From: a bacterium
GTDB taxonomy: Bacteria > Electryoneota > Electryoneia > Electryoneales > Electryoneaceae
DNA: 64,000 bases
NCBI GenBank assembly: GCA_020444425.1
Contig: JAHLLB010000017.1
Coordinates: 2,099-66,098, forward strand
Reading direction: 5' to 3'
The notes below the pieces were generated by a model that made no database searches, was not told the origin of the DNA, and was given only the letters and a program-made list of their open reading frames with translations. This document shows positions 12,100 through 31,141 of this stretch, piece by piece. The first letter of the stretch is position 1, and every line of letters starts with the position of its first letter. Made by a program: the position numbers and the translations under genes.

Positions 12100-12127
12100 T
12101 TGACTCCGAAAAGCAGGGAGCTATATT
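12100..12127 (+). promoter_or_regulatory. sigma70-like promoter of the tRNA-tuf operon (TTGACT -16 nt- TATATT)
   Basis: -35 TTGACT 12100-12105 and -10 TATATT 12122-12127 with a 16-nt spacer; ~145 nt upstream of the first tRNA. Confidence 0.5.
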
Positions 12128-12273: not shown

Positions 12274-12346
12274 GCCGGTGTAGCTCAGTTGGTAGAGCAC
12301 TGGATTTGTAATCCAGCGGTCATCGGTTCGAGTCCGATCGCCGGCT
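12274..12346 (+). tRNA. tRNA-Thr (anticodon TGT)
   Basis: Cloverleaf: acceptor GCCGGTG/CGCCGGC, D-arm TAGCTCAGTTGGTAGAGCA, anticodon loop TTTGTAA, T-arm GGTTCGAGTCC. Confidence 0.92.
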
Positions 12347-12553
12347 CAATGCTTTGCGCAACAAGCCAGGTATTCAAGGTGGCATGCGACACGGAGCAGG
12401 GAGGCTCCCGCCCCAGCACAGGCGGAGGGCCAAAACACCTGGATCGTGAGCGGAGGTCACCGTTTCTGTGTTGTGAAGGCAGGCTGGATACGATCTCTTT
12501 ACAAGCTGAGCGTTTTTTAACCCGACGGAAGTTGTTGGGTTGAAGTGATAGTC

Positions 12554-12636
12554 GGGGGGATGCCCGAGCGGCCAAAGGGAGCAGACTGTAAATCTGCCGG
12601 CGTACGCCTTCGAAGGTTCGAATCCTTCTCCCCCCA
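12554..12636 (+). tRNA. tRNA-Tyr (anticodon GTA), long variable arm
   Basis: Acceptor GGGGGGA/TCCCCCC, anticodon loop ACTGTAAAT, long variable arm, T-arm GAAGGTTCGAATCCTTC. Confidence 0.9.
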
Positions 12637-12720
12637 CATAGTGATTGCAGGCCCGCCCGGTTTTCCGGGATGCAGTGATGCCCGCAGAGCATGGGCCCGA
12701 GCAGGGTGGTCCGAACACAA

Positions 12721-12793
12721 GCGGGAGTAGCTCATCTGGTAGAGCACCAGCCTTCCAAGCTGGATGTGGCGGGTTCGAGTCCCGTCTCCCGCT
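12721..12793 (+). tRNA. tRNA-Gly (anticodon TCC)
   Basis: Acceptor GCGGGAG/CTCCCGC, anticodon loop CTTCCAA, T-arm GGGTTCGAGTCCC. Confidence 0.9.
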
Positions 12794-12900
12794 CAACTGG
12801 GATGTGGGATGTGAGATTCGAGCGAAACGAGCTGGTGGGTAGCTGGTCGTGTGTTGAAGCTGGTCAATGTTCGTAACTCGTAGCTCACAACTGGTTTTCA

Positions 12901-12973
<73 letters not shown>

Positions 12974-13037: not shown

Positions 13038-14228
13038 ATGGCGAAGGAAGTATTTGAGCGGACGAAGCCCCACGTAAATGTGGGAACGATTGGTCACGTG
13101 GACCATGGCAAGACGACGTTGACGGCCGCGATGACGTTGGTGTTGTCGAAGGCGGGCGGAGCGGAATTCCGTTCGTTCGATTCGATTGACAACGCGCCGG
13201 AAGAGCGTGAGCGTGGTATCACGATCGCGACGGCCCACGTCGAATATGAGTCGGAGAACCGTCACTACGCGCACGTTGACTGTCCAGGTCACGCGGACTA
13301 CGTGAAGAACATGATCACGGGTGCTGCGCAGATGGACGGTGCGATTGTGGTTGTGAGTGCGGCTGACGGTCCGATGCCGCAGACTCGTGAGCACATTCTT
13401 TTGGCTCGTCAGGTGAACGTGCCGGCGTTGGTGGTTTACATGAACAAGGTCGACCTGGTCGATGACGAAGAGTTGTTGGACCTGGTAGAGCTTGAGATGC
13501 GCGAGTTGCTTTCGGAATACGAATTTCCGGGCGACGACATTCCGATCATCCGTGGTTCAGCGCTTGAGGCGTTGAACAATCCGGATGATGAGAAGGCGAC
13601 GACGTCGATCTTTGAATTGATCAAGGCTGTCGACGATTTCATTCCGGAGCCTGAGCGTGCGACGGACCTTCCGTTCCTGATGCCTGTCGAGGATGTGTTC
13701 TCGATTACGGGTCGTGGTACGGTGGCGACGGGTCGTATTGAGCGTGGCATCGTGAAGACCGGTGAAGAGCTTGAGTTGGTCGGTCTTGGTGCAGCCCGCA
13801 AGACGGTTGTGACGGGTGTCGAGATGTTCCGCAAGATCCTGAATGAGGGTCAGGCGGGTGACAACGCGGGTCTGTTGCTTCGTGGTGTTGACAAGGATGA
13901 GATCGAGCGCGGGATGGTTTTGGCGAAGCCGGGTTCGATTACGCCTCACACGAAGTTCGAGGCCGAGGTTTACATCCTGAGCAAGAACGAAGGTGGCCGT
14001 CACACTCCGTTCTTCGATGGGTATCGTCCTCAGTTCTACTTCCGGACGACGGATGTGACTGGCGCGATCAAGTTGCCTGAGGGCGTCGAGATGGTGATGC
14101 CTGGTGACAACATCAAGATGGATGTGGAGCTGATCGCACCGATCGCGATGGAAGAGACGCTTCGTTTCGCGATTCGTGAGGGTGGCCGTACCGTCGGTGC
14201 CGGTGTTGTCGCGAAGATTATTGAGTAG
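13038..14228 (+). CDS. tuf: elongation factor Tu (copy 1, tufB-like position after the tRNA cluster)
   Basis: 396 aa; [18 protein letters not shown] GTPase motifs; protein identical to the second copy at 29951..31141. Confidence 0.97.
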
Positions 14229-14627: not shown

Positions 14628-14700
14628 AGGACACTAGCTCAATTGGTAGAGCACCGGTCTCCAAAACCGGGGGTTGGGGGTTCGAGTCCCTCGTGTCCTG
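14628..14700 (+). tRNA. tRNA-Trp (anticodon CCA)
   Basis: Acceptor AGGACAC/GTGTCCT, anticodon loop CTCCAAA, T-arm GGGGGTTCGAGTCCCTC; encoded CCA follows. Confidence 0.9.
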
Positions 14701-14994: not shown

Positions 14995-15543
14995 TTGTCC
15001 ATGGAATGGTACGTCCTACAAGTTTTCACCGGCCAGGAAAATCGCGTCAAGGAGTATCTTGAGGCTGAGTTGGAACGGCTGGAGGAATATCGGGAGCTGG
15101 TTGGCAATGTGCTGATCCCATCCGAAGATGTTGTCGAGATGCGGGATGGCAAGAAGCGAACCAAGCGGCGCAACTTCTTCCCCGGCTATTTGCTGGTGGA
15201 GATGGAGTTGACGAAGCACAGCAAGCACCTGGTACTGAGTACCCCTGGCGTGATGGGGTTCATCGGCGGATCCGGGAGCGATCCCGAGCCGCTGCAGAAG
15301 GAAGAAGTCGACCGCATTCTCGGCCGTGTGGAAGAGAGAGCGGGTCAAACAACCGTTGAAATTCCGTTCCTCGTGGATGACGTGGTGAAAATCGCGGACG
15401 GTCCGTTCAAGGACTTCCAGGGGACGATTAAGGAAATCAACGCTGAAAAACGGAAGTTGAAGGTTCTCGTGTCGATTTTCGGTCGCGAGACACCGGTGGA
15501 GGTCGATTTCCTCCAGGTAACGACGGATTTCAGCGAGTCCTGA
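14995..15543 (+). CDS. nusG: transcription termination/antitermination factor NusG
   Basis: 182 aa; NGN domain ([18 protein letters not shown]) and C-terminal KOW ([18 protein letters not shown]). Confidence 0.95.
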
Positions 15544-15553
15544 GGCACAAGTC

Positions 15554-15979
15554 ATGGCGAAGAAAGTCATCGGCATTGCGAAACTCGTGATTCCCGGCGG
15601 TCAGGCGTCTCCGGCGCCCCCTGTCGGTACAGCGCTCGGTCCGAAGGGCGTGAACATCATGGAGTTCGTCAAGGCGTTCAATGCGAAGACGGCGCAGGTT
15701 CCGGGTGAGTTGACACCGGTGGAGGTGACGGTCTATCAGGATCGTTCGTTCACCTTCATCATGAAGACCCCTCCGGCCAGCTATTTGATCAAGAAGGCGA
15801 TCAAGTTGGACAAGGGTTCGGGAGAACCGAACCGCGCCAAGGTCGGCACGATCAAGCTGGACCAGGTACGCGAGATCGCGGAGAAGAAGATGCCGGATCT
15901 GAACGCGCACACCGTTGAACAGGCGATGCATATCATCGCCGGCACGGCCCGTTCGATGGGCGTTATTGTGGAGCAATAG
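15554..15979 (+). CDS. rplK: 50S ribosomal protein L11
   Basis: 141 aa; [38 protein letters not shown]. Confidence 0.97.
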
Positions 15980-15980
15980 G

Positions 15981-16709
15981 ATGAAGCGCAGCCGACGCTG
16001 GAAGGAAGCGATGGCAGATGTCGATCGCTTCCGCGAATACCAGCTCGACAAGGGTATTGAGCTCATCAAGAAGTTCGCGACGAAGACGAAGTTCGACGAA
16101 ACTGTCGAAGTGACCGTCAATCTCAACGTCGACCCGCGAAAAGCGGATCAGATGATCCGTGGAACGCTGACCTTGCCGCATGGTACGGGTAAGACGGTGC
16201 GGGTACTGGTTCTGACCAAGGGTGAGAAGCAGGTTGAGGCGCGTGAGGCCGGTGCGGATCACGTCGGATTCGATGAGTTCATTGAGAAGATTACCAACGA
16301 GAACTGGTTTGAGTTTGACGTGCTGATTGCCACGCCGGATGTGATGCGTGACGTCGGTAAGCTCGGGCGTGTTCTCGGTCCCCGTGGCCTGATGCCAAAC
16401 CCCAAAACCGGAACGGTCACCTTTGATGTTGGCCAGGCGGTGCAAGAGGTGAAGGCGGGTCGAATCGACTTCCGTGTTGACAAGTATGGTATCGTCCACA
16501 TCGGAGTCGGCAAGGCGAGTTTTGAGCCGGAGCAGCTGTCGGACAATATCCGCGAGGTGATTGGCACGTTGACCCGTATGCGTCCGGCTGCAGTCAAGGG
16601 CGTGTACATCAAGCGTGTGACGCTTTCCTCGACGATGAGTCCGGGGGTACGGTTGGATCGTTCCGATGCGGCTGGCTCGGCTGCCCGTCTGGTGGTGACT
16701 GCCGACTAG
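15981..16709 (+). CDS. rplA: 50S ribosomal protein L1
   Basis: Start [15 protein letters not shown] at 15981, internal to ORF 15915..16709; alignment to the L1 N-terminus; TLPHGTGK motif. Confidence 0.92.
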
Positions 16710-16794
16710 CTTCGGAATCGCGAGACCGATTCCTCAAACTGAGTATCCCATCCTCCTGAAGTTGGGGAGAGGCGAACCATAGCAGGGAATATCG

Positions 16795-17352
16795 ATGGGT
16801 GAGATCACGGCGAAAGCCAGCCCGTTAAAGAAGAAGGCTCTCCAGACCCTGGAAGAGCGGCTGGCAGACAAGAGCGCAATCATCTTCGCGGACTACCGCG
16901 GGTTGAGCGTAGCACAAACGAACCAGCTGCGTAGCAATTTCCACAAGGCTGAAGGCGGGGAGTTCCTCGTCGTGAAGAACAGCATTCTCAAGATGGCACT
17001 TGAGAAGCAGGGACTCACGATAACGGACGAATCCCTGTTGAAGGGGCCGACGGCGATTGGTATCTCGGACGAGCCGGTAACTCCGGCGAAGACGTTGGCC
17101 GATTTTGCCAAGGGTCACGACAAGCTGGTCTTCAAGGGCGTGCTGGTTGATGGCGAGTTTTTCGATGCGGACCGTGTCAAGGATTTCGCGTCGTTACCGT
17201 CAACGGAAGAGATGTACGCGAGCATCGTGGGCAGTATCGCGAGCCCGTTGAGCGGATTTGTTTCTCTGCTGAACGAGATCGTACGCCAGTTCCTGGCGGT
17301 GCTGGAAGCGGTGATTCAAGAGAAGCAGAAGGAAGAGGGCGCGGCTGCGTAG
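16795..17352 (+). CDS. rplJ: 50S ribosomal protein L10
   Basis: 185 aa; conserved position and L10 N-terminal domain. Confidence 0.92.
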   Translation: MGEITAKASPLKKKALQTLEERLADKSAIIFADYRGLSVAQTNQLRSNFHKAEGGEFLVVKNSILKMALEKQGLTITDESLLKGPTAIGISDEPVTPAKTLADFAKGHDKLVFKGVLVDGEFFDADRVKDFASLPSTEEMYASIVGSIASPLSGFVSLLNEIVRQFLAVLEAVIQEKQKEEGAAA

Positions 17353-17448
17353 CCAGACCATGGTGGGTTACCGTTAGGCGGTACCTGCTACTTTTCCACA
17401 CGATACAGCAACAAAAGAACGCATTCATAGCAGGTTTGGAGGTTCGAG

Positions 17449-17829
17449 GTGGAACAGATTATCGATGCCATCAAGAACATGAAGGTGCTTGAGCTCGTCG
17501 AGCTGAAGAAAGCACTGGAAGAAGAGTTCGGTGTCTCTGCGGCTGCAGCTCCTGTCATGATGGCTGGTGCGGCTCCTGCGGGGGGTGGTGGCGAAGCGGC
17601 AGCGGCCGAGGAAGAACAGACGGAATTCGATGTCGTCCTGAAGGATGCCGGCGCGAAGAAGATTCAGGTCATCAAGGTCGTGCGTCAGCTGACCGGCTTG
17701 GGTCTGAAGGAAGCGAAGGATCTGGTCGACGGCGCTCCGAATACCGTCAAGGAAGCCGTGCCGAAAGAAGAAGCGGAAGACATCATCAAGCAGATTGAAG
17801 AGGTTGGCGGCGCCGCGGAGATGAAGTAA
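17449..17829 (+). CDS. rplL: 50S ribosomal protein L7/L12
   Basis: GTG start with GGAGGT SD; [34 protein letters not shown]...; Ala/Gly/Glu hinge; conserved C-terminal domain. Confidence 0.97.
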
Positions 17830-17866
17830 TTGTTCGCGGTACCGGCAGTGCCGGTGAGTGTCTGTA

Positions 17867-17905
17867 ACGGCGGAACGCGCCTTCGAAGGAGCGCTCCGCC
17901 GTTTC
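17867..17905 (+). terminator. rplL-rpoB intergenic attenuator hairpin
   Basis: ~13-bp imperfect inverted repeat AACGGCGGAACGCGCC..GGAGCGCTCCGCCGTT followed by TCGTGCCGTTT; position analogous to the known rplL-rpoB attenuator. Confidence 0.55.
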
Positions 17906-18092
17906 GTGCCGTTTCGGCATGCGGTACCCCGGTTCTCAGCGATGCTCGGGTTACGGCAATTGAAGTTGGATTTTTCTGCTTTTGCCGTTCAGTCTTTGCA
18001 GTTTAGAAGACTCGCTGAAACTCCGGGGCTCCGGTGTTTCTGGTGCAGCAGTTTTGTGCCATTAGACAGTACTCTTACCAGGAGGGTCGAAC

Positions 18093-21881
<3,789 letters not shown>

Positions 21882-22008: not shown

Positions 22009-26445
<4,437 letters not shown>

Positions 26446-26457
26446 GATCTCGGGATC

Positions 26458-26486
26458 TTGACTCGAGGGGTTGATTCCTCTATACT
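26458..26486 (+). promoter_or_regulatory. sigma70-like promoter (TTGACT -17 nt- TATACT) just downstream of rpoC
   Basis: -35 TTGACT 26458-26463 and -10 TATACT 26481-26486 with a 17-nt spacer. Confidence 0.55.
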
Positions 26487-26614
26487 CAGCGGACGTTTGC
26501 GAAATCGTTGCCAGCCACGTTCCGGCGTGCGGAGGCGTTGGGTTGATCCCCAACCAGCGGCCTTGAGTTCATGCGAAGTCGGAGCCGGCAACAAACGATA
26601 TTGGGGACACCGTA

Positions 26615-26656
26615 GCGGGCGGCGCTGTGGTGCGTCGCTCGCCCCTTTTTTCCTTT
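26615..26656 (+). terminator. intrinsic terminator (GC-rich stem + T6) between rpoC and rpsL
   Basis: GGGCGGCGCTGTGGTGCGTCGCTCGCCCCTTTTTTCCTTTT; stem ~8 bp with one bulge, followed by T-run. Confidence 0.55.
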
Positions 26657-26788
26657 TGGGAAAGGGCGTAGAGCCCGTGCATTTTGGAAGACTGGGGTTT
26701 TGAGCACGACACCTGCGCTGCGCGTCTTTTTGTTGTTTGGATTTAAGGTGGCGGATAACCGCCGGCAGGAGAAGCAACCGGAGTTGCG

Positions 26789-27160
26789 ATGCCCACGGTA
26801 AATCAGTTGGTCCGTAAAGGTCGTAAGCGGATCGTGAAGAAGGGAACGGCGCCCGCGTTGAATAATTGCCCTCAGCGTCGCGGCGTGTGTACGCGAGTGT
26901 ACACGACGACGCCGAAGAAGCCGAATTCGGCTCTTCGTAAGGTTGCGCGTGTGCGTTTGACCAATCAGATCGAGGTTACGGCGTACATCCCGGGTGAGGG
27001 TCACAACCTGCAGGAGCACTCGATTGTGCTCGTGCGCGGCGGTCGTGTAAAGGACTTGCCGGGTGTTCGATACCACATCATTCGTGGTACGCTTGACACG
27101 TCCGGTGTCGAGGACCGCAACCAGGGTCGAAGCAAGTACGGTGCAAAGAAGAAGAAGTAG
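26789..27160 (+). CDS. rpsL: 30S ribosomal protein S12
   Basis: 123 aa; [13 protein letters not shown]...[18 protein letters not shown]. Confidence 0.98.
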
Positions 27161-27213
27161 CCGTCTGGTCGTCCCGGGGTTTCGGGGCGCGCGGCATTAC
27201 CAGGGAATGGCGT

Positions 27214-27684
27214 ATGGCCAGGCGTAGACGCGCTGATAAACGAGAGATCCTTCCGGATCCGAAATTCCAGTCGCTGAAGGTCGCGAAGTTCATCAACAAC
27301 TTGATGAGTCGCGGCAAGAAGTCGACGTCGGAAGGTATTTTTTACGACGCGATTGATATCATTGACCAGCGCACGAAGGGTCGTGGGTTGGAGATCTTCG
27401 AGAAGGCGGTTCGCAATGTGCAGCCGATGCTCGAGGTGAAGAGTCGTCGTGTTGGTGGTAGTACCTATCAGGTGCCGGTAGAGGTTCGTCAGGACCGCGG
27501 CCAGGCACTTGCAACCCGCTGGATCATTTCGTATGCCAAGGCCCGTGCGGGCAAGAACATGGCGGATAAGCTCGCCGGTGAGTTCATGGCGGCAGCGAAC
27601 GGCGAAGGATCGTCGATCAAGAAGCGGGAAGACACGCACAAGATGGCGGAGGCGAACAAGGCGTTCGCGCACTTCCGCTGGTAG
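27214..27684 (+). CDS. rpsG: 30S ribosomal protein S7
   Basis: 156 aa; [18 protein letters not shown]... Confidence 0.97.
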
Positions 27685-27796: not shown

Positions 27797-29920
27797 ATGG
27801 CGAACCAGAAGAAAAAAGGAAATGGCGAGGCTCGTCGCTGGCCGCTTGGCAAGGTGCGCAACTTTGGTATCATGGCGCACATTGACGCCGGCAAGACCAC
27901 GACGACGGAACGCATCCTCTACTACACCGGCCGTACGCATCGTATGGGTGAGGTGCATGAGGGCGCCGCGGTAACCGACTGGATGGAACAGGAGCGGGAA
28001 CGCGGCATCACCATCACTTCGGCATCGATCACGACCGAGTGGAAGGGGCATCGCCTGAGCCTCATCGACACCCCCGGGCATGTCGACTTCACGGCTGAAG
28101 TCGAACGTGCGCTGCGTGTGCTCGATGGTGCTGTCGCCCTCTTCTGTGCCGTCGGTGGCGTTGAGCCGCAATCGGAAACGGTTTGGCGTCAGGCCGACAA
28201 GTACAAAGTTCCCCGACTCTGCTATATCAACAAGATGGACCGGACGGGCGCGGATTTCTTCCGCACCTATGAGATGATTCAGGATCGTTTCGGTCATCAT
28301 CCGATTCCCGTGCAGATTCCCATGGGTGCCGGCGAGATGTTTAACGGCCTCATCGACCTGATCAAGATGAAGGCCGTCTGGTACATTGAGGAAACGCAGG
28401 GGCTGAAGTTCGAGGAAGGCGACATCCCCGCTGACTTGCTTGATGAAGCGAAGAAGTGGCGTGAGAAGATGCTCGAGTCCATCAGCGATTATGATGACGA
28501 GCTGATGGAGATGTTCCTCGATGAGCAGGAAATTCCGGAGAATCGGATCAAGTCGGCGTTGCGCAAGGCGACGATTGACCTGAGCGTGACCCCGGTTCTG
28601 TGCGGGTCCAGCTACAAGAACAAGGGCGTGCAGCGCCTGCTCGACTCCATCGTGGATTACCTTCCGAGTCCGGAAGATCGTGCGATTGTTACGGGCATGC
28701 ATCCGCACACTGAGCAGCCGATTGAACGGAAGCAGGTTGACGACGAGCAGTTCAGCGGCCTCGCGTTCAAGATCATGACCGACCCGTTCGTCGGGCGGTT
28801 GACCTATGTCCGTGTGTATTCGGGCACAATGGATTCCGGCCAGACTGTGTTTAATCCGCGCACCGGCAAGAAGGAGCGCATCGGTCGAATCCTCGAGATG
28901 TTTGCGAACAAGCGCGAAGAGCGCAAGTCGGTTCACGCCGGCGGTATTGTCGCGCTGGTTGGGATGAAGGATGTGCGCACGGGCGACACCCTTTGCGATC
29001 CCAGCCACCCGATTCTGCTGGAATCACTGTCCTTCCCGACCCCGGTGATCACCCGGGCGATTGAACCCAGAACCAAGGCAGACCAGGATCACCTGCTCGA
29101 CAGCTTGCTGAAGCTGGCGGAAGAGGATCCGACGTTCATCGTCAAGTATGACGAAGAATCCGGCCAGACGCATATCAGCGGCATGGGCGAGCTTCACCTT
29201 GACATTCTGATTGATCGTCTGCTGCGTGAATTCCAGGTTCAGGCGAATGTTGGTAACCCGCAGGTTGCCTATAAGGAAGGCGTTTCCGAGACGGCGCAGG
29301 CGGAAGGCCGTTTTGTCCGTCAGTCCGGTGGCCGTGGCCAGTTTGGCCATGCTGTCATCGAGCTGTCGCCGCTTAAGGAAGGCGAAGTTGCGGACAACGG
29401 TTTGGTCTTCGAGGACGGGATTGTCGGCGGAACGATTCCGCGTGAATACATTCCGGCCGTGAAGAAGGGTATTGAGCAGGCGATGGGGAACGGCGTTCTC
29501 GCCGGGTATCCCCTTGAGAATATCCGGGTACGGTTGTTTGACGGTTCATTCCACTCGGTCGACTCCAACGAAATGGCGTTCCAGATTGCCGGTTCGATGG
29601 CGTTGAAAGAGGCGGTGAAGAAAGCGAAACCGTTCCTGGCTGAGCCGATCATGAAGCTGGAAGTCGTGACACCGGAAGAGTATGTCGGTGATGTGATGGG
29701 CGATCTGAACGGTCGTCGAGCCAGAGTTACCGGTATCAACCCGCGCTCGGATGCGCAGGTGGTGGATGCTGAGGTGCCGCTGGCGAACATGTTCGGATAT
29801 GCCACCAGCCTGCGTTCAATGACGCAGGGCCGCGCGCTGTTCACGATGGAATTTGATCATTACCAGCGCGCGCCGAAGGAAGTTGAAGAGGAAGTCATTA
29901 AGAAGGTTCGTGGCTACTAG
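27797..29920 (+). CDS. fusA: elongation factor G
   Basis: 707 aa; [30 protein letters not shown] GTPase motifs. Confidence 0.98.
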
Positions 29921-29950: not shown

Positions 29951-31141
29951 ATGGCGAAGGAAGTATTTGAGCGGACGAAGCCCCACGTAAATGTGGGAAC
30001 GATTGGTCACGTGGACCATGGCAAGACGACGTTGACGGCCGCGATGACGTTGGTGTTGTCGAAGGCGGGCGGAGCGGAATTCCGTTCGTTCGATTCGATT
30101 GACAACGCGCCGGAAGAGCGTGAGCGTGGTATCACGATCGCGACGGCCCACGTCGAATATGAGTCGGAGAACCGTCACTACGCGCACGTTGACTGTCCAG
30201 GTCACGCGGACTACGTGAAGAACATGATCACGGGTGCTGCGCAGATGGACGGTGCGATTGTGGTTGTGAGTGCGGCTGACGGTCCGATGCCGCAGACTCG
30301 TGAGCACATTCTTTTGGCTCGTCAGGTGAACGTGCCGGCGTTGGTGGTTTACATGAACAAGGTCGACCTGGTCGATGACGAAGAGTTGTTGGACCTGGTA
30401 GAGCTTGAGATGCGCGAGTTGCTTTCGGAATACGAATTTCCGGGCGACGACATTCCGATCATCCGTGGTTCAGCGCTTGAGGCGTTGAACAATCCGGATG
30501 ATGAGAAGGCGACGACGTCGATCTTTGAATTGATCAAGGCTGTCGACGATTTCATTCCGGAGCCTGAGCGTGCGACGGACCTTCCGTTCCTGATGCCTGT
30601 CGAGGATGTGTTCTCGATTACGGGTCGTGGTACGGTGGCGACGGGTCGTATTGAGCGTGGCATCGTGAAGACCGGTGAAGAGCTTGAGTTGGTCGGTCTT
30701 GGTGCAGCCCGCAAGACGGTTGTGACGGGTGTCGAGATGTTCCGCAAGATCCTGAATGAGGGTCAGGCGGGTGACAACGCGGGTCTGTTGCTTCGTGGTG
30801 TTGACAAGGATGAGATCGAGCGCGGGATGGTTTTGGCGAAGCCGGGTTCGATTACGCCTCACACGAAGTTCGAGGCCGAGGTTTACATCCTGAGCAAGAA
30901 CGAAGGTGGCCGTCACACTCCGTTCTTCGATGGGTATCGTCCTCAGTTCTACTTCCGGACGACGGATGTGACTGGCGCGATCAAGTTGCCTGAGGGCGTC
31001 GAGATGGTGATGCCTGGTGACAACATCAAGATGGATGTGGAGCTGATCGCACCGATCGCGATGGAAGAGACGCTTCGTTTCGCGATTCGTGAGGGTGGCC
31101 GTACCGTCGGCGCCGGTGTTGTTGCGAAGATTATTGAGTAG
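29951..31141 (+). CDS. tuf: elongation factor Tu (copy 2, str-operon position)
   Basis: 396 aa, protein identical to copy 1; nucleotide differences seen only in the last ~30 nt (GGT/GGC, GTC/GTT synonymous); flanking sequence diverges immediately outside the CDS. Confidence 0.97.

Follow-up and report, generated by a model that had tools for sequence, protein, structure and literature searches.

Introduction

Leader RNAs of ribosomal protein (r-protein) operons are the main means by which bacteria balance the synthesis of r-proteins and rRNA. To our knowledge, most r-protein leaders outside the Proteobacteria and Firmicutes have yet to be described, and in the case of the str operon only the S7 site of Escherichia coli has been studied experimentally. 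Attenuation leaders of the Firmicute type (L10, L13, L19, L20 and L21) were reportedly described by Yao et al. in 2007, and earlier predictions of rpsL-leader attenuators are said to go back to Merino and Yanofsky. Here we describe a structured RNA, about 158 nt long, in the rpoC-rpsL spacer of a stretch of 64,000 nucleotides (assembly GCA_020444425.1, contig JAHLLB010000017.1, positions 2,099 to 66,098 of the forward strand; hereafter the window) from a bacterium of the Electryoneota lineage. The RNA is preceded by its own promoter, covaries in relatives, contains a pseudoknot and ends in an intrinsic terminator. On a guarded view it is probably an attenuating leader of the str operon.

Several described systems stand close to this locus. 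Attenuators in rpsL leaders were found to be widespread and multiform, with no common sequence or structure (Naville & Gautheret 2010, PMC2965389), and the same authors raised the question of whether S7 is the partner of rpsL leaders everywhere (PMC2965389). The Pelagibacter rpsL motif lies consistently 3′ of rpoC and 5′ of rpsL (Meyer et al. 2009, PMC2704228). In E. coli, the str operon is repressed by S7 (Saito & Nomura 1994; Robert & Brakier-Gingras 2001; review PMC10931766).

The rpoC-rpsL spacer of the window is 343 nt long and holds the structured RNA. Downstream of it lies the str operon, rpsL-rpsG-fusA-tuf, in which the S10 genes further downstream are probably included. A search of the whole window against Rfam 15 at gathering score returned five tRNAs only, without any ribosomal leader such as the L10 leader, and a search of 26380-26860 at E-values up to 10 gave three meaningless sub-threshold matches. 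Thus, there was no Rfam match to SRP, 6S, tmRNA, RNase P, known riboswitches or the catalogued rpsL leaders, which for the first four agrees with the first-pass annotation of this DNA, a reading of the letters made without database searches.

A covarying RNA fold between rpoC and rpsL

The element was found in 13 loci with 12 distinct RNA sequences, all from uncultured bacteria of the FCB group, and 13/13 loci have it in the rpoC-rpsL spacer, on the coding strand. In the window, the segment 26490-26665 folds with a minimum free energy of -78.1 kcal/mol (z = -2.57 against dinucleotide shuffles). In a model-guided alignment of the 13 sequences, 85.7% of the cells in nested helices were paired, compared to 36-46% when the 3′ partners were slid, and double changes were detected in 21 of the 41 nested pairs; 0/500 shuffles reached the observed values. 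A MAFFT alignment gave the same covariation picture. The comparison of relatives for conservation and covariation, which the first-pass annotation had put forward as a check, was therefore passed strongly, with double changes also in 6 of the 9 pairs of the pseudoknot described below. G-U pairs are frequent in the plus sense (pair 40-102, for example, is GU in 12/13 sequences). On the opposite strand each of them would become an A-C mismatch, which fixes the plus strand as the sense of the RNA. The covariance model R1, built from ten of the sequences, matches the window at 26487-26650 with 164.5 bits. A length of about 130 nt had been proposed at first; measured from A26493 to the U tract, it is about 158 nt.

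The RNA consists mainly of one long irregular hairpin, built from the helices P2 to P6. The closing stems P2 and P3 are present in every member with differing sequences, e.g. UAUCAA/UUGAUA and CCUAA/UUGGG in locus L104, and again others in L106 and L101, while their register is uncertain. Helix 2 is 64% paired with double changes in 4/4 pairs, and helix 3 is 84% paired with double changes in 2/5 pairs. The long-range pairing GTTGCC...GGCAAC that was noticed in the first pass corresponds to P3 and thus stands, with moderate support only. P4 and P5 form the most conserved core of the RNA (helix 4, 91.6% paired). Here the closing pair 41-101 is GC in 8 and CG in 5 sequences, and the outer pair 36-106 is UA in 10, GC in 2 and AU in 1. 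In the P4 and terminator stems the sequence is conserved as well as the pairing, as would be expected of a protein-binding site.

The apical stem P6 (helix 5) is 79.5% paired and has 3 pairs with double changes. Its loop measures 12-16 nt across members and carries a nearly invariant UCCCC motif. A stem-loop GTTGGG...CCCAAC had also been proposed for this region. It is possible in the window, but the relatives show the CCCC run in the pseudoknot loop, and the conserved stem is CGTTGG/CCAGCG. The GTTGGG...CCCAAC hairpin is therefore best seen as a local alternative to the pseudoknot that uses the same C run.

Two candidates for an outermost helix P1 were rejected. Given a transcription start 7 nt past the -10 hexamer, the first of them, a pairing of 5′ GCGG with CCGU predicted by folding, would be located at -4 to -1, within the discriminator of the promoter. 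The second, GUUU/GGAC, would form at the expense of the pseudoknot and has hardly any covariation behind it (helix 1, 68% paired).

A pseudoknot between the apical loop and the 3′ flank

Every member carries a C-rich motif in the apical loop and a G-rich motif between the closing stem and the 3′ hairpin (UCCCC and GGGGA). In the 12 distinct sequences, 83.3% of the pseudoknot cells are paired, compared to 31-53% when the strands are slid. The covariation score was 0.271 versus 0.130 in shuffles, with 0/500 shuffles reaching it. The flanks, compared after anchoring on the UCCCC and GGGGA motifs, covary: GUCCCCAC/GUGGGGAC in L101, CAUCCCCG/CGGGGAUG in L106, GUCCCCAA/UUGGGGAC in L104 and ACGUCCCCA/UGGGGGCGU in L108. 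The otherwise invariant CCCC:GGGG core was compensated twice independently, as UCUCC/GGAGA in L109 and as UUCCC/GGGAA in L112, the Electryonea member.

Because the apical loop pairs with a strand 3′ of the closing stem, the long hairpin would have to bend back on itself, its tip docking beside its own base. This fold-back presumably takes place at the internal loops. The pseudoknot is a feature new to the present analysis, and none has been reported for other rpsL leaders.

Terminator and candidate antiterminator

The stem with a T6 terminator that the first-pass annotation had placed from 26615 is present (Table 1). At the DNA level its arms are GCGGGCGGCGC (26615-26625) and GCGTCGCTCGC (26632-26642), followed by CCCTTTTTT with the T6 run. 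Nine of the 11 pairs are G-C, and the stem has a predicted energy of -22.7 kcal/mol. The corresponding helix 6 reaches 97.2% pairing, and double changes occur in 6 of its pairs. All members have the hairpin and a U-rich tract, the latter interrupted in L104, L106 and L112. In the window the T run ends 138 nt before the rpsL ATG, close to the roughly 130 nt first estimated.

The hairpin is the only plus-strand terminator-like site within 20.0-34.0 kb of the window, and the same plus-strand scan detected none of comparable stem strength at 11.5-20.0 kb. Being the only plus-strand terminator-like site with a long GC-rich stem between about 11.5 and 34 kb, it would very probably also end the transcripts of the upstream secE-nusG-rplKAJL-rpoBC region.

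Folding a transcript that stops short of the 3′ arm of the terminator gave a candidate antiterminator hairpin (-10.8 kcal/mol, z = -1.7), which takes up the 5′ arm and the loop of the terminator. The 5′ strand of this hairpin is adjacent to the 3′ pseudoknot strand or shares bases with it. The candidate has -9 to -11 kcal/mol in the close group of relatives and in L083, where the equivalent ACCUGAGAC/GUCUAGGU shows compensating changes and is housed in an enlarged terminator loop. Within the close group, a segment of 40 nt, GGGGA(C)ACCGUAGCGGGCGRCGCUGUGGUGCGUCG, is almost invariant while its flanks differ. Such dual pairing would explain the invariance of the terminator loop and of the upstream ACCGUA in these members.

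Table 1. Positions of the RNA, its parts and the adjoining genes in the window
Feature	Position	Strand	Details
rpoB	18093-21881	+	
rpoC stop codon	26443-26445	+	TAA
Sigma-70-type promoter	26458-26486	+	-35 TTGACT (26458-26463), 17-nt spacer, -10 TATACT (26481-26486)
Structured RNA	26493-26651	+	about 158 nt, predicted start A26493 to end of U tract
P2/P3 closing stems, 5′ strand	26504-26512	+	AUCG, UUGCC
P4 and P5, 5′ strands	26521-26531	+	P4 UCCGGC (26521-26526), unpaired G26527, P5 UGCG (26528-26531)
P6 apical stem	26536-26559	+	CGUUGG (26536-26541) with CCAGCG (26554-26559), 12-nt loop GUUGAUCCCCAA (26542-26553)
Pseudoknot, 5′ strand	26547-26553	+	UCCCCAA, inside the apical loop
P5 and P4, 3′ strands	26572-26583	+	P5 UGCG (26572-26575), unpaired AA (26576-26577), P4 GUCGGA (26578-26583)
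P3/P2 closing stems, 3′ strand	26587-26599	+	GGCAA, CAAA (bulge), CGAU
Pseudoknot, 3′ strand	26601-26607	+	UUGGGGA, between closing stem and terminator hairpin
Candidate antiterminator hairpin	26609-26631	+	ACCGUAGCG (26609-26617), loop GGCGG, CGCUGUGGU (26623-26631)
Intrinsic terminator (candidate attenuator)	26615-26651	+	11-bp stem GCGGGCGGCGC/GCGUCGCUCGC, loop UGUGGU, then CCC UUUUUU
Conserved block	26700-26746	+	UUGAGCACG, short hairpin, second U-rich run CGUCUUUUUGUUGUUUGG
Two hairpins before rpsL	26750-26787	+	GGCGG-AUAA-CCGCC (26750-26763), then GCAAC-CGGA-GUUGC (26774-26787)
rpsL	26789-27160	+	ATG at 26789
rpsG	27214-27684	+	
fusA	27797-29920	+	
tuf	29951-31141	+	downstream of fusA

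A conserved promoter behind rpoC

The promoter TTGACT-17-TATACT, which had been noticed directly after the rpoC stop codon, starts 13 nt past it and matches the consensus hexamers at 10/12 positions. On its own such a site is not above chance: four comparable sites were found in the 14 kb scanned, with 4.6 expected. It was kept in place in 13/13 loci, starting about 10-65 nt past the rpoC stop codon, with hexamers that match at 9-12 of 12 positions. The pattern across loci is TTGAC[TA]-17/18-TA[TAC][AT]A[CAT]T, and the bases between the hexamers differ freely. We take the promoter to be real because the hexamers are conserved in relatives while the spacer between them diverges, which would be the mark of a working promoter. 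From the geometry of the promoter, transcription should start at A26493, the 7th base after the -10 hexamer. A consensus scan for sigma-70-type sites found none between the start of the RNA and the rpsL ATG in any member.

When both strands of the 64-kb window were scanned, only 3 sites matched at 10/12 positions or better. The only other intergenic one is TTGACT-16-TATATT at 12100-12127, which precedes a cluster of four tRNA genes by about 150 nt.

Distribution and selection

The loci were collected by several routes. The exact S12 protein of the window led to two near-identical loci whose spacer is 98% identical. S7 homologues and one RpoC homologue led to the contigs L083, L085-88, L090, L091, L098-102, L108, L109 and L111-114. 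The search for RpoC homologues returned only partial proteins of at most 71% identity, among them P0035 on L083, a distant member. A genome scan with the RpoC C-terminus gave, among the matches listed, relatives of at most 57% identity from Bacteroidota, Ignavibacteria, Zixibacteria and Latescibacteria, none of which has the RNA according to R1. Finally, a degenerate DNA pattern derived from the conserved core was scanned, free of any gene context, over a metagenome collection. It gave 5 matches. L104 and L106 were new and L107 was a known contig, and all 3 lie between rpoC and rpsL; the two others, L103 and L105, were rejected as chance matches in coding DNA.

R1 scores the members at 53-166 bits, and their S7 proteins are 71-97% identical to that of the window. 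The organisms are labelled at NCBI as ‘bacterium’, ‘Calditrichota bacterium’ (including the metagenome-assembled genome GCA_018263585.1, L091) and ‘bacterium BMS3Bbin04’, and L112 is Candidatus Electryonea clarkiae of the phylum Candidatus Electryoneota, FCB group. R1 found nothing in 80 more distant FCB loci (Bacteroidota, Ignavibacteria, Zixibacteria, Latescibacteria and others), many of them with rpoC beside rpsL, and had no match in L084, where the rpoC-rpsL spacer is only about a dozen bases long. From these searches the RNA family appears to be confined to a fairly narrow lineage. No second copy was detected in the roughly 640 kb of loci searched with R1.

Within five closer relatives, the RNA is 0.75-0.99 identical to the window, compared to 0.47-0.85 at four-fold degenerate rpsG sites of the same genomes, which indicates purifying selection on the RNA. 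Coding potential was considered as well and rejected. No open reading frame (ORF) is conserved. Stop-free frames are common from the GC content, but in the lower-GC members they reach only 22-55 codons on the plus strand (the longest in the spacer is 37 codons in L083 and 55 in L109), and the frame is broken by indels between relatives that are not multiples of three.

The segment between terminator and rpsL

The remainder of the spacer, beyond the terminator, shows much lower conservation than the RNA. Its consensus fold is weak, and the consensus scan did not find a promoter-like site in it. Two parts of it stand out. The block at 26700-26746 is common to L081, L085, L090 and L098, loosely also to L091, and is missing from the distant members. 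Its sequence is conserved without convincing covariation, and it may serve for pausing or as a second, weak terminator. Closer to rpsL, the hairpin at 26750-26763 covaries (GCGGG/CCCGC in L085, CAGGUG/CACCUG in L101), and the hairpin at 26774-26787 encloses the Shine-Dalgarno sequence GGAG (26780-26783) just before the rpsL ATG. Six close relatives share the block AACCGGAGUUG of this region without any change. Altogether, the region 26750-26787 hints at a further, translational control point.

Interpretation as a probable attenuating leader of the str operon

The first-pass annotation had left two possibilities side by side, a small RNA and a leader or attenuator of the str operon. The evidence favours the latter, and we consider it probable, if only somewhat, that the RNA is a cis-acting attenuating 5′ leader of the str operon with an r-protein such as S7 as its ligand. 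Three observations lead us in this direction. Firstly, the RNA always lies directly upstream of rpsL, also in the matches of the context-free scan. Secondly, its promoter is the only visible one for the very highly expressed str genes. Thirdly, an alternative hairpin would compete with the terminator. It should be added that rpsL can depend on transcription from upstream, because the RNA-less locus L084 joins rpoC and rpsL almost directly.

The leader would work as follows. The near-consensus promoter right after rpoC would start a transcript of about 158 nt, which would fold into the long irregular hairpin P2 to P6, its apical loop pairing back with the G-rich stretch 3′ of the closing stem. 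The GC-rich hairpin with its U tract, 4-6 nt past the pseudoknot, would act as a premature terminator that gates entry into rpsL. With the sensor domain unlocked, the ACCGUAGCG segment would pair with the 5′ arm and loop of the terminator, so that termination is delayed and the operon is transcribed. A ligand that stabilises the pseudoknotted fold would withhold this segment, the terminator would form and transcription would stop. The ligand would most probably be an r-protein encoded in the operon, present in excess over rRNA, with S7 as the first candidate and S12 as the second. A protein, and S7 in particular, is suspected because every characterised r-protein operon leader binds a protein (PMC7247131, PMC10931766) and because S7 represses the str operon of E. 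coli.

A mimicry of 16S rRNA near the S7 site was suspected, in which helix 42 would be copied by the P4/P5 core (UCCGG...GAAGUCGGA) and the base of helix 41 by the terminator (GGCGC...GUGCGUCG). GAAGUCGGA and GUGCGUCG do occur in E. coli 16S near h41/h42. This candidate was nevertheless rejected as evidence and is retained as a lead only, rRNA mimicry being unproven on the comparison with E. coli 16S.

Several points weigh against the interpretation as a leader. The longest k-mers shared with E. coli 16S (8-10 nt) are at chance level, with 46-293 of 300 shuffles equalling them and the matches scattered, and R1 has no match in the 16S rRNA or the str region of that species. In predicted stability the terminator (-14 to -27 kcal/mol) far exceeds the candidate antiterminator (-4 to -11 kcal/mol), which in L101, L104 and L108 is weak or in another register. 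The 90-174 poorly conserved nucleotides from terminator to rpsL are long for an expression platform. The promoter scan detects sigma-70-type sites only, so that a promoter of another kind downstream is possible. The argument from synteny is biased, since flanking genes were the route to 11 of the 13 loci. The start site, the termination efficiency and the read-through are all inferred, and a promoter followed by a terminator fits a free small RNA too.

Alternative explanations

This last point leads to a stand-alone small RNA gene, trans-acting or protein-binding, with the str genes transcribed by leakage of the terminator or from an unrecognised promoter. We regard this as unlikely, though by no means far-fetched. 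A near-consensus promoter and a strong terminator bound a discrete unit of about 158 nt, the compact pseudoknotted fold resembles that of many protein-binding small RNAs, and both the very stable terminator next to a weak antiterminator and the roughly 140 poorly conserved nucleotides before rpsL would be in keeping with it. However, a free RNA gene would not be expected to hold one position and orientation upstream of rpsL even where S7 is only 71-72% identical, and it would leave the very highly expressed str genes without a promoter, as no member has a sigma-70-like site downstream. The degenerate U tract in L104, L106 and L112 would be tolerable for an attenuator but a poor definition of a 3′ end. 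Moreover, the RNA lacks a long conserved seed in single-stranded form; those unpaired bases that are conserved take part in the pseudoknot.

A bolder version of the attenuating leader, in which the RNA is a new sensor class (for a small molecule or for a protein other than S7) gating the junction from rpoBC to the ribosomal supercluster, seems quite unlikely to us. If it were true, one terminator would both end the rpoBC transcripts and meter rpsL-rpsG-fusA-tuf and the S10 genes, and a pseudoknot switch would set the ratio of RNA polymerase to ribosomes across Candidatus Electryoneota and relatives.

A riboswitch, in which the pseudoknotted domain binds a small molecule (e.g. a nucleotide alarmone) and controls the same terminator, is distinctly improbable in our view. 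The aptamer-like domain, the abutment of the pseudoknot 3′ strand on the switching sequence and the terminator would suit it, and r-proteins, EF-G and EF-Tu are classic targets of growth-rate control. Yet no known class was matched in Rfam, and a riboswitch class would normally be expected at several related genes, while this RNA precedes a single one. Its strongest conservation is helical (P4 and the terminator stem) and not in junction nucleotides, and the characterised r-protein leaders all bind protein (PMC7247131, PMC10931766).

It is very improbable that the RNA acts in processive antitermination, like phage put or rrn boxA, letting the polymerase read through terminators and a long gene cluster. 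Structured RNA does follow directly after the promoter and heads a cluster of more than 15 kb, with no plus-strand terminator-like site in the 7 kb scanned downstream, up to 34.0 kb, and the close group has one strong and one weak terminator-like site. But the second of these sites is missing outside the close group, Rfam showed no resemblance to put, EAR or boxA, and the way in which the terminator arm can pair alternatively speaks for attenuation of the classical type.

Scarcely credible, finally, is the absence of any dedicated RNA (an rpoBC terminator, an rpsL or chance promoter, and GC-rich noise or a small ORF at 26458-26703 of 81 codons), which could appeal to promoter-like sites at chance rate here, a z of only -2.57 and the presence of open frames, but is already contradicted by the covariation in 21/41 nested and 6/9 pseudoknot pairs and by conservation above the level of synonymous sites, and sits badly with the non-triplet indels, the short stop-free stretches (37 codons in L083, 55 in L109) and a promoter that lies upstream of the terminator, not downstream.

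The attenuating leader is thus the interpretation that we retain. The element adds a well-supported, structurally distinct family (long hairpin, loop-to-tail pseudoknot, terminator) in an uncultured FCB lineage and offers a concrete RNA on which to ask if rpsL leaders are universally regulated by S7 or by some other protein (PMC2965389). For annotation, the element marks the boundary of the rpoBC and str transcription units, between the polymerase and ribosome gene blocks.

Neighbouring features of the window

A second tuf gene lies at 13038-14228, and its EF-Tu protein is 100% identical over 396 aa to that of the copy at 29951-31141. The first follows a tRNA cluster and the second closes the str operon, which is the classical tufA/tufB arrangement; the two copies are presumably kept identical by gene conversion. 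The cluster consists of four tRNA genes at 12274-12973, followed by tuf, and a fifth tRNA gene (14628-14700) lies between this tuf and a putative secE-nusG. Upstream of rpoB, 14995-18093 holds ORFs with the sizes and order expected of rplK-rplA-rplJ-rplL, an assignment that is putative. A spacer of 264 nt (17830-18092) separates the putative rplL ORF, which ends at 17829, from rpoB, and may hold another lineage-specific element.

The mechanically called rpoC ORF begins at GTG 21790, measures 1551 aa and overlaps the end of rpoB (21790-21881). As the called RpoC proteins of relatives have only 1471-1514 aa, the true start of rpoC in the window is probably further downstream. The rpsL-rpsG spacer (27161-27213, 53 nt) contains a GC-rich hairpin, CCCGGGGUUUCGGGG, in the same position as the S7 operator of E. 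coli. In L091 this spacer (2162-2500) measures about 340 nt, and R1 has no match there.

Comparison with known systems

The closest relatives in kind are the rpsL-leader attenuators rpsL_psuedo and rpsL_ricks (PMC2965389). Like the RNA described here, they are structured leaders upstream of rpsL with a premature terminator and a possible antiterminator, their sequence and structure are lineage-specific, and S7 has been proposed as partner. They differ in that the present RNA has no Rfam match and carries a covarying apical-loop pseudoknot beside the terminator. They are also found in other organisms, namely Listeria, Xanthomonas, Pseudomonas and Rickettsia, whereas the present RNA belongs to Candidatus Electryoneota-like FCB bacteria and has its terminator 90-174 nt from the start codon.

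The Pelagibacter rpsL motif (PMC2704228) likewise heads a long run of ribosomal genes in one lineage. However, it has a bulged P1 and a three-stem junction and fails the terminator criteria, whereas the present RNA has a single long hairpin, a pseudoknot and a clear terminator.

In the case of the E. coli S7 operator, feedback acts on the same operon, which is the reason to suspect S7 here. In contrast to the present RNA, which lies upstream of rpsL, that operator occupies the rpsL-rpsG intercistronic region and controls coupled translation. When E. coli rpsL-rpsG-fusA was searched with R1, the best match had 8.8 bits on the wrong strand.

With the Firmicute-type leaders the RNA shares the promoter, a structured domain that binds protein (in the present case, a proposal), the intrinsic terminator and the control of an r-protein operon. 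Those leaders are other RNA families on other operons, and rRNA mimicry is evident in several of them while it is not demonstrable here.

Overall, both the kind of element and its genomic position have precedents, and no concept is overturned. Since it is a different RNA family from a different, uncultured lineage and contains a pseudoknot, the present RNA appears to be a new family within the known, multiform rpsL leaders.

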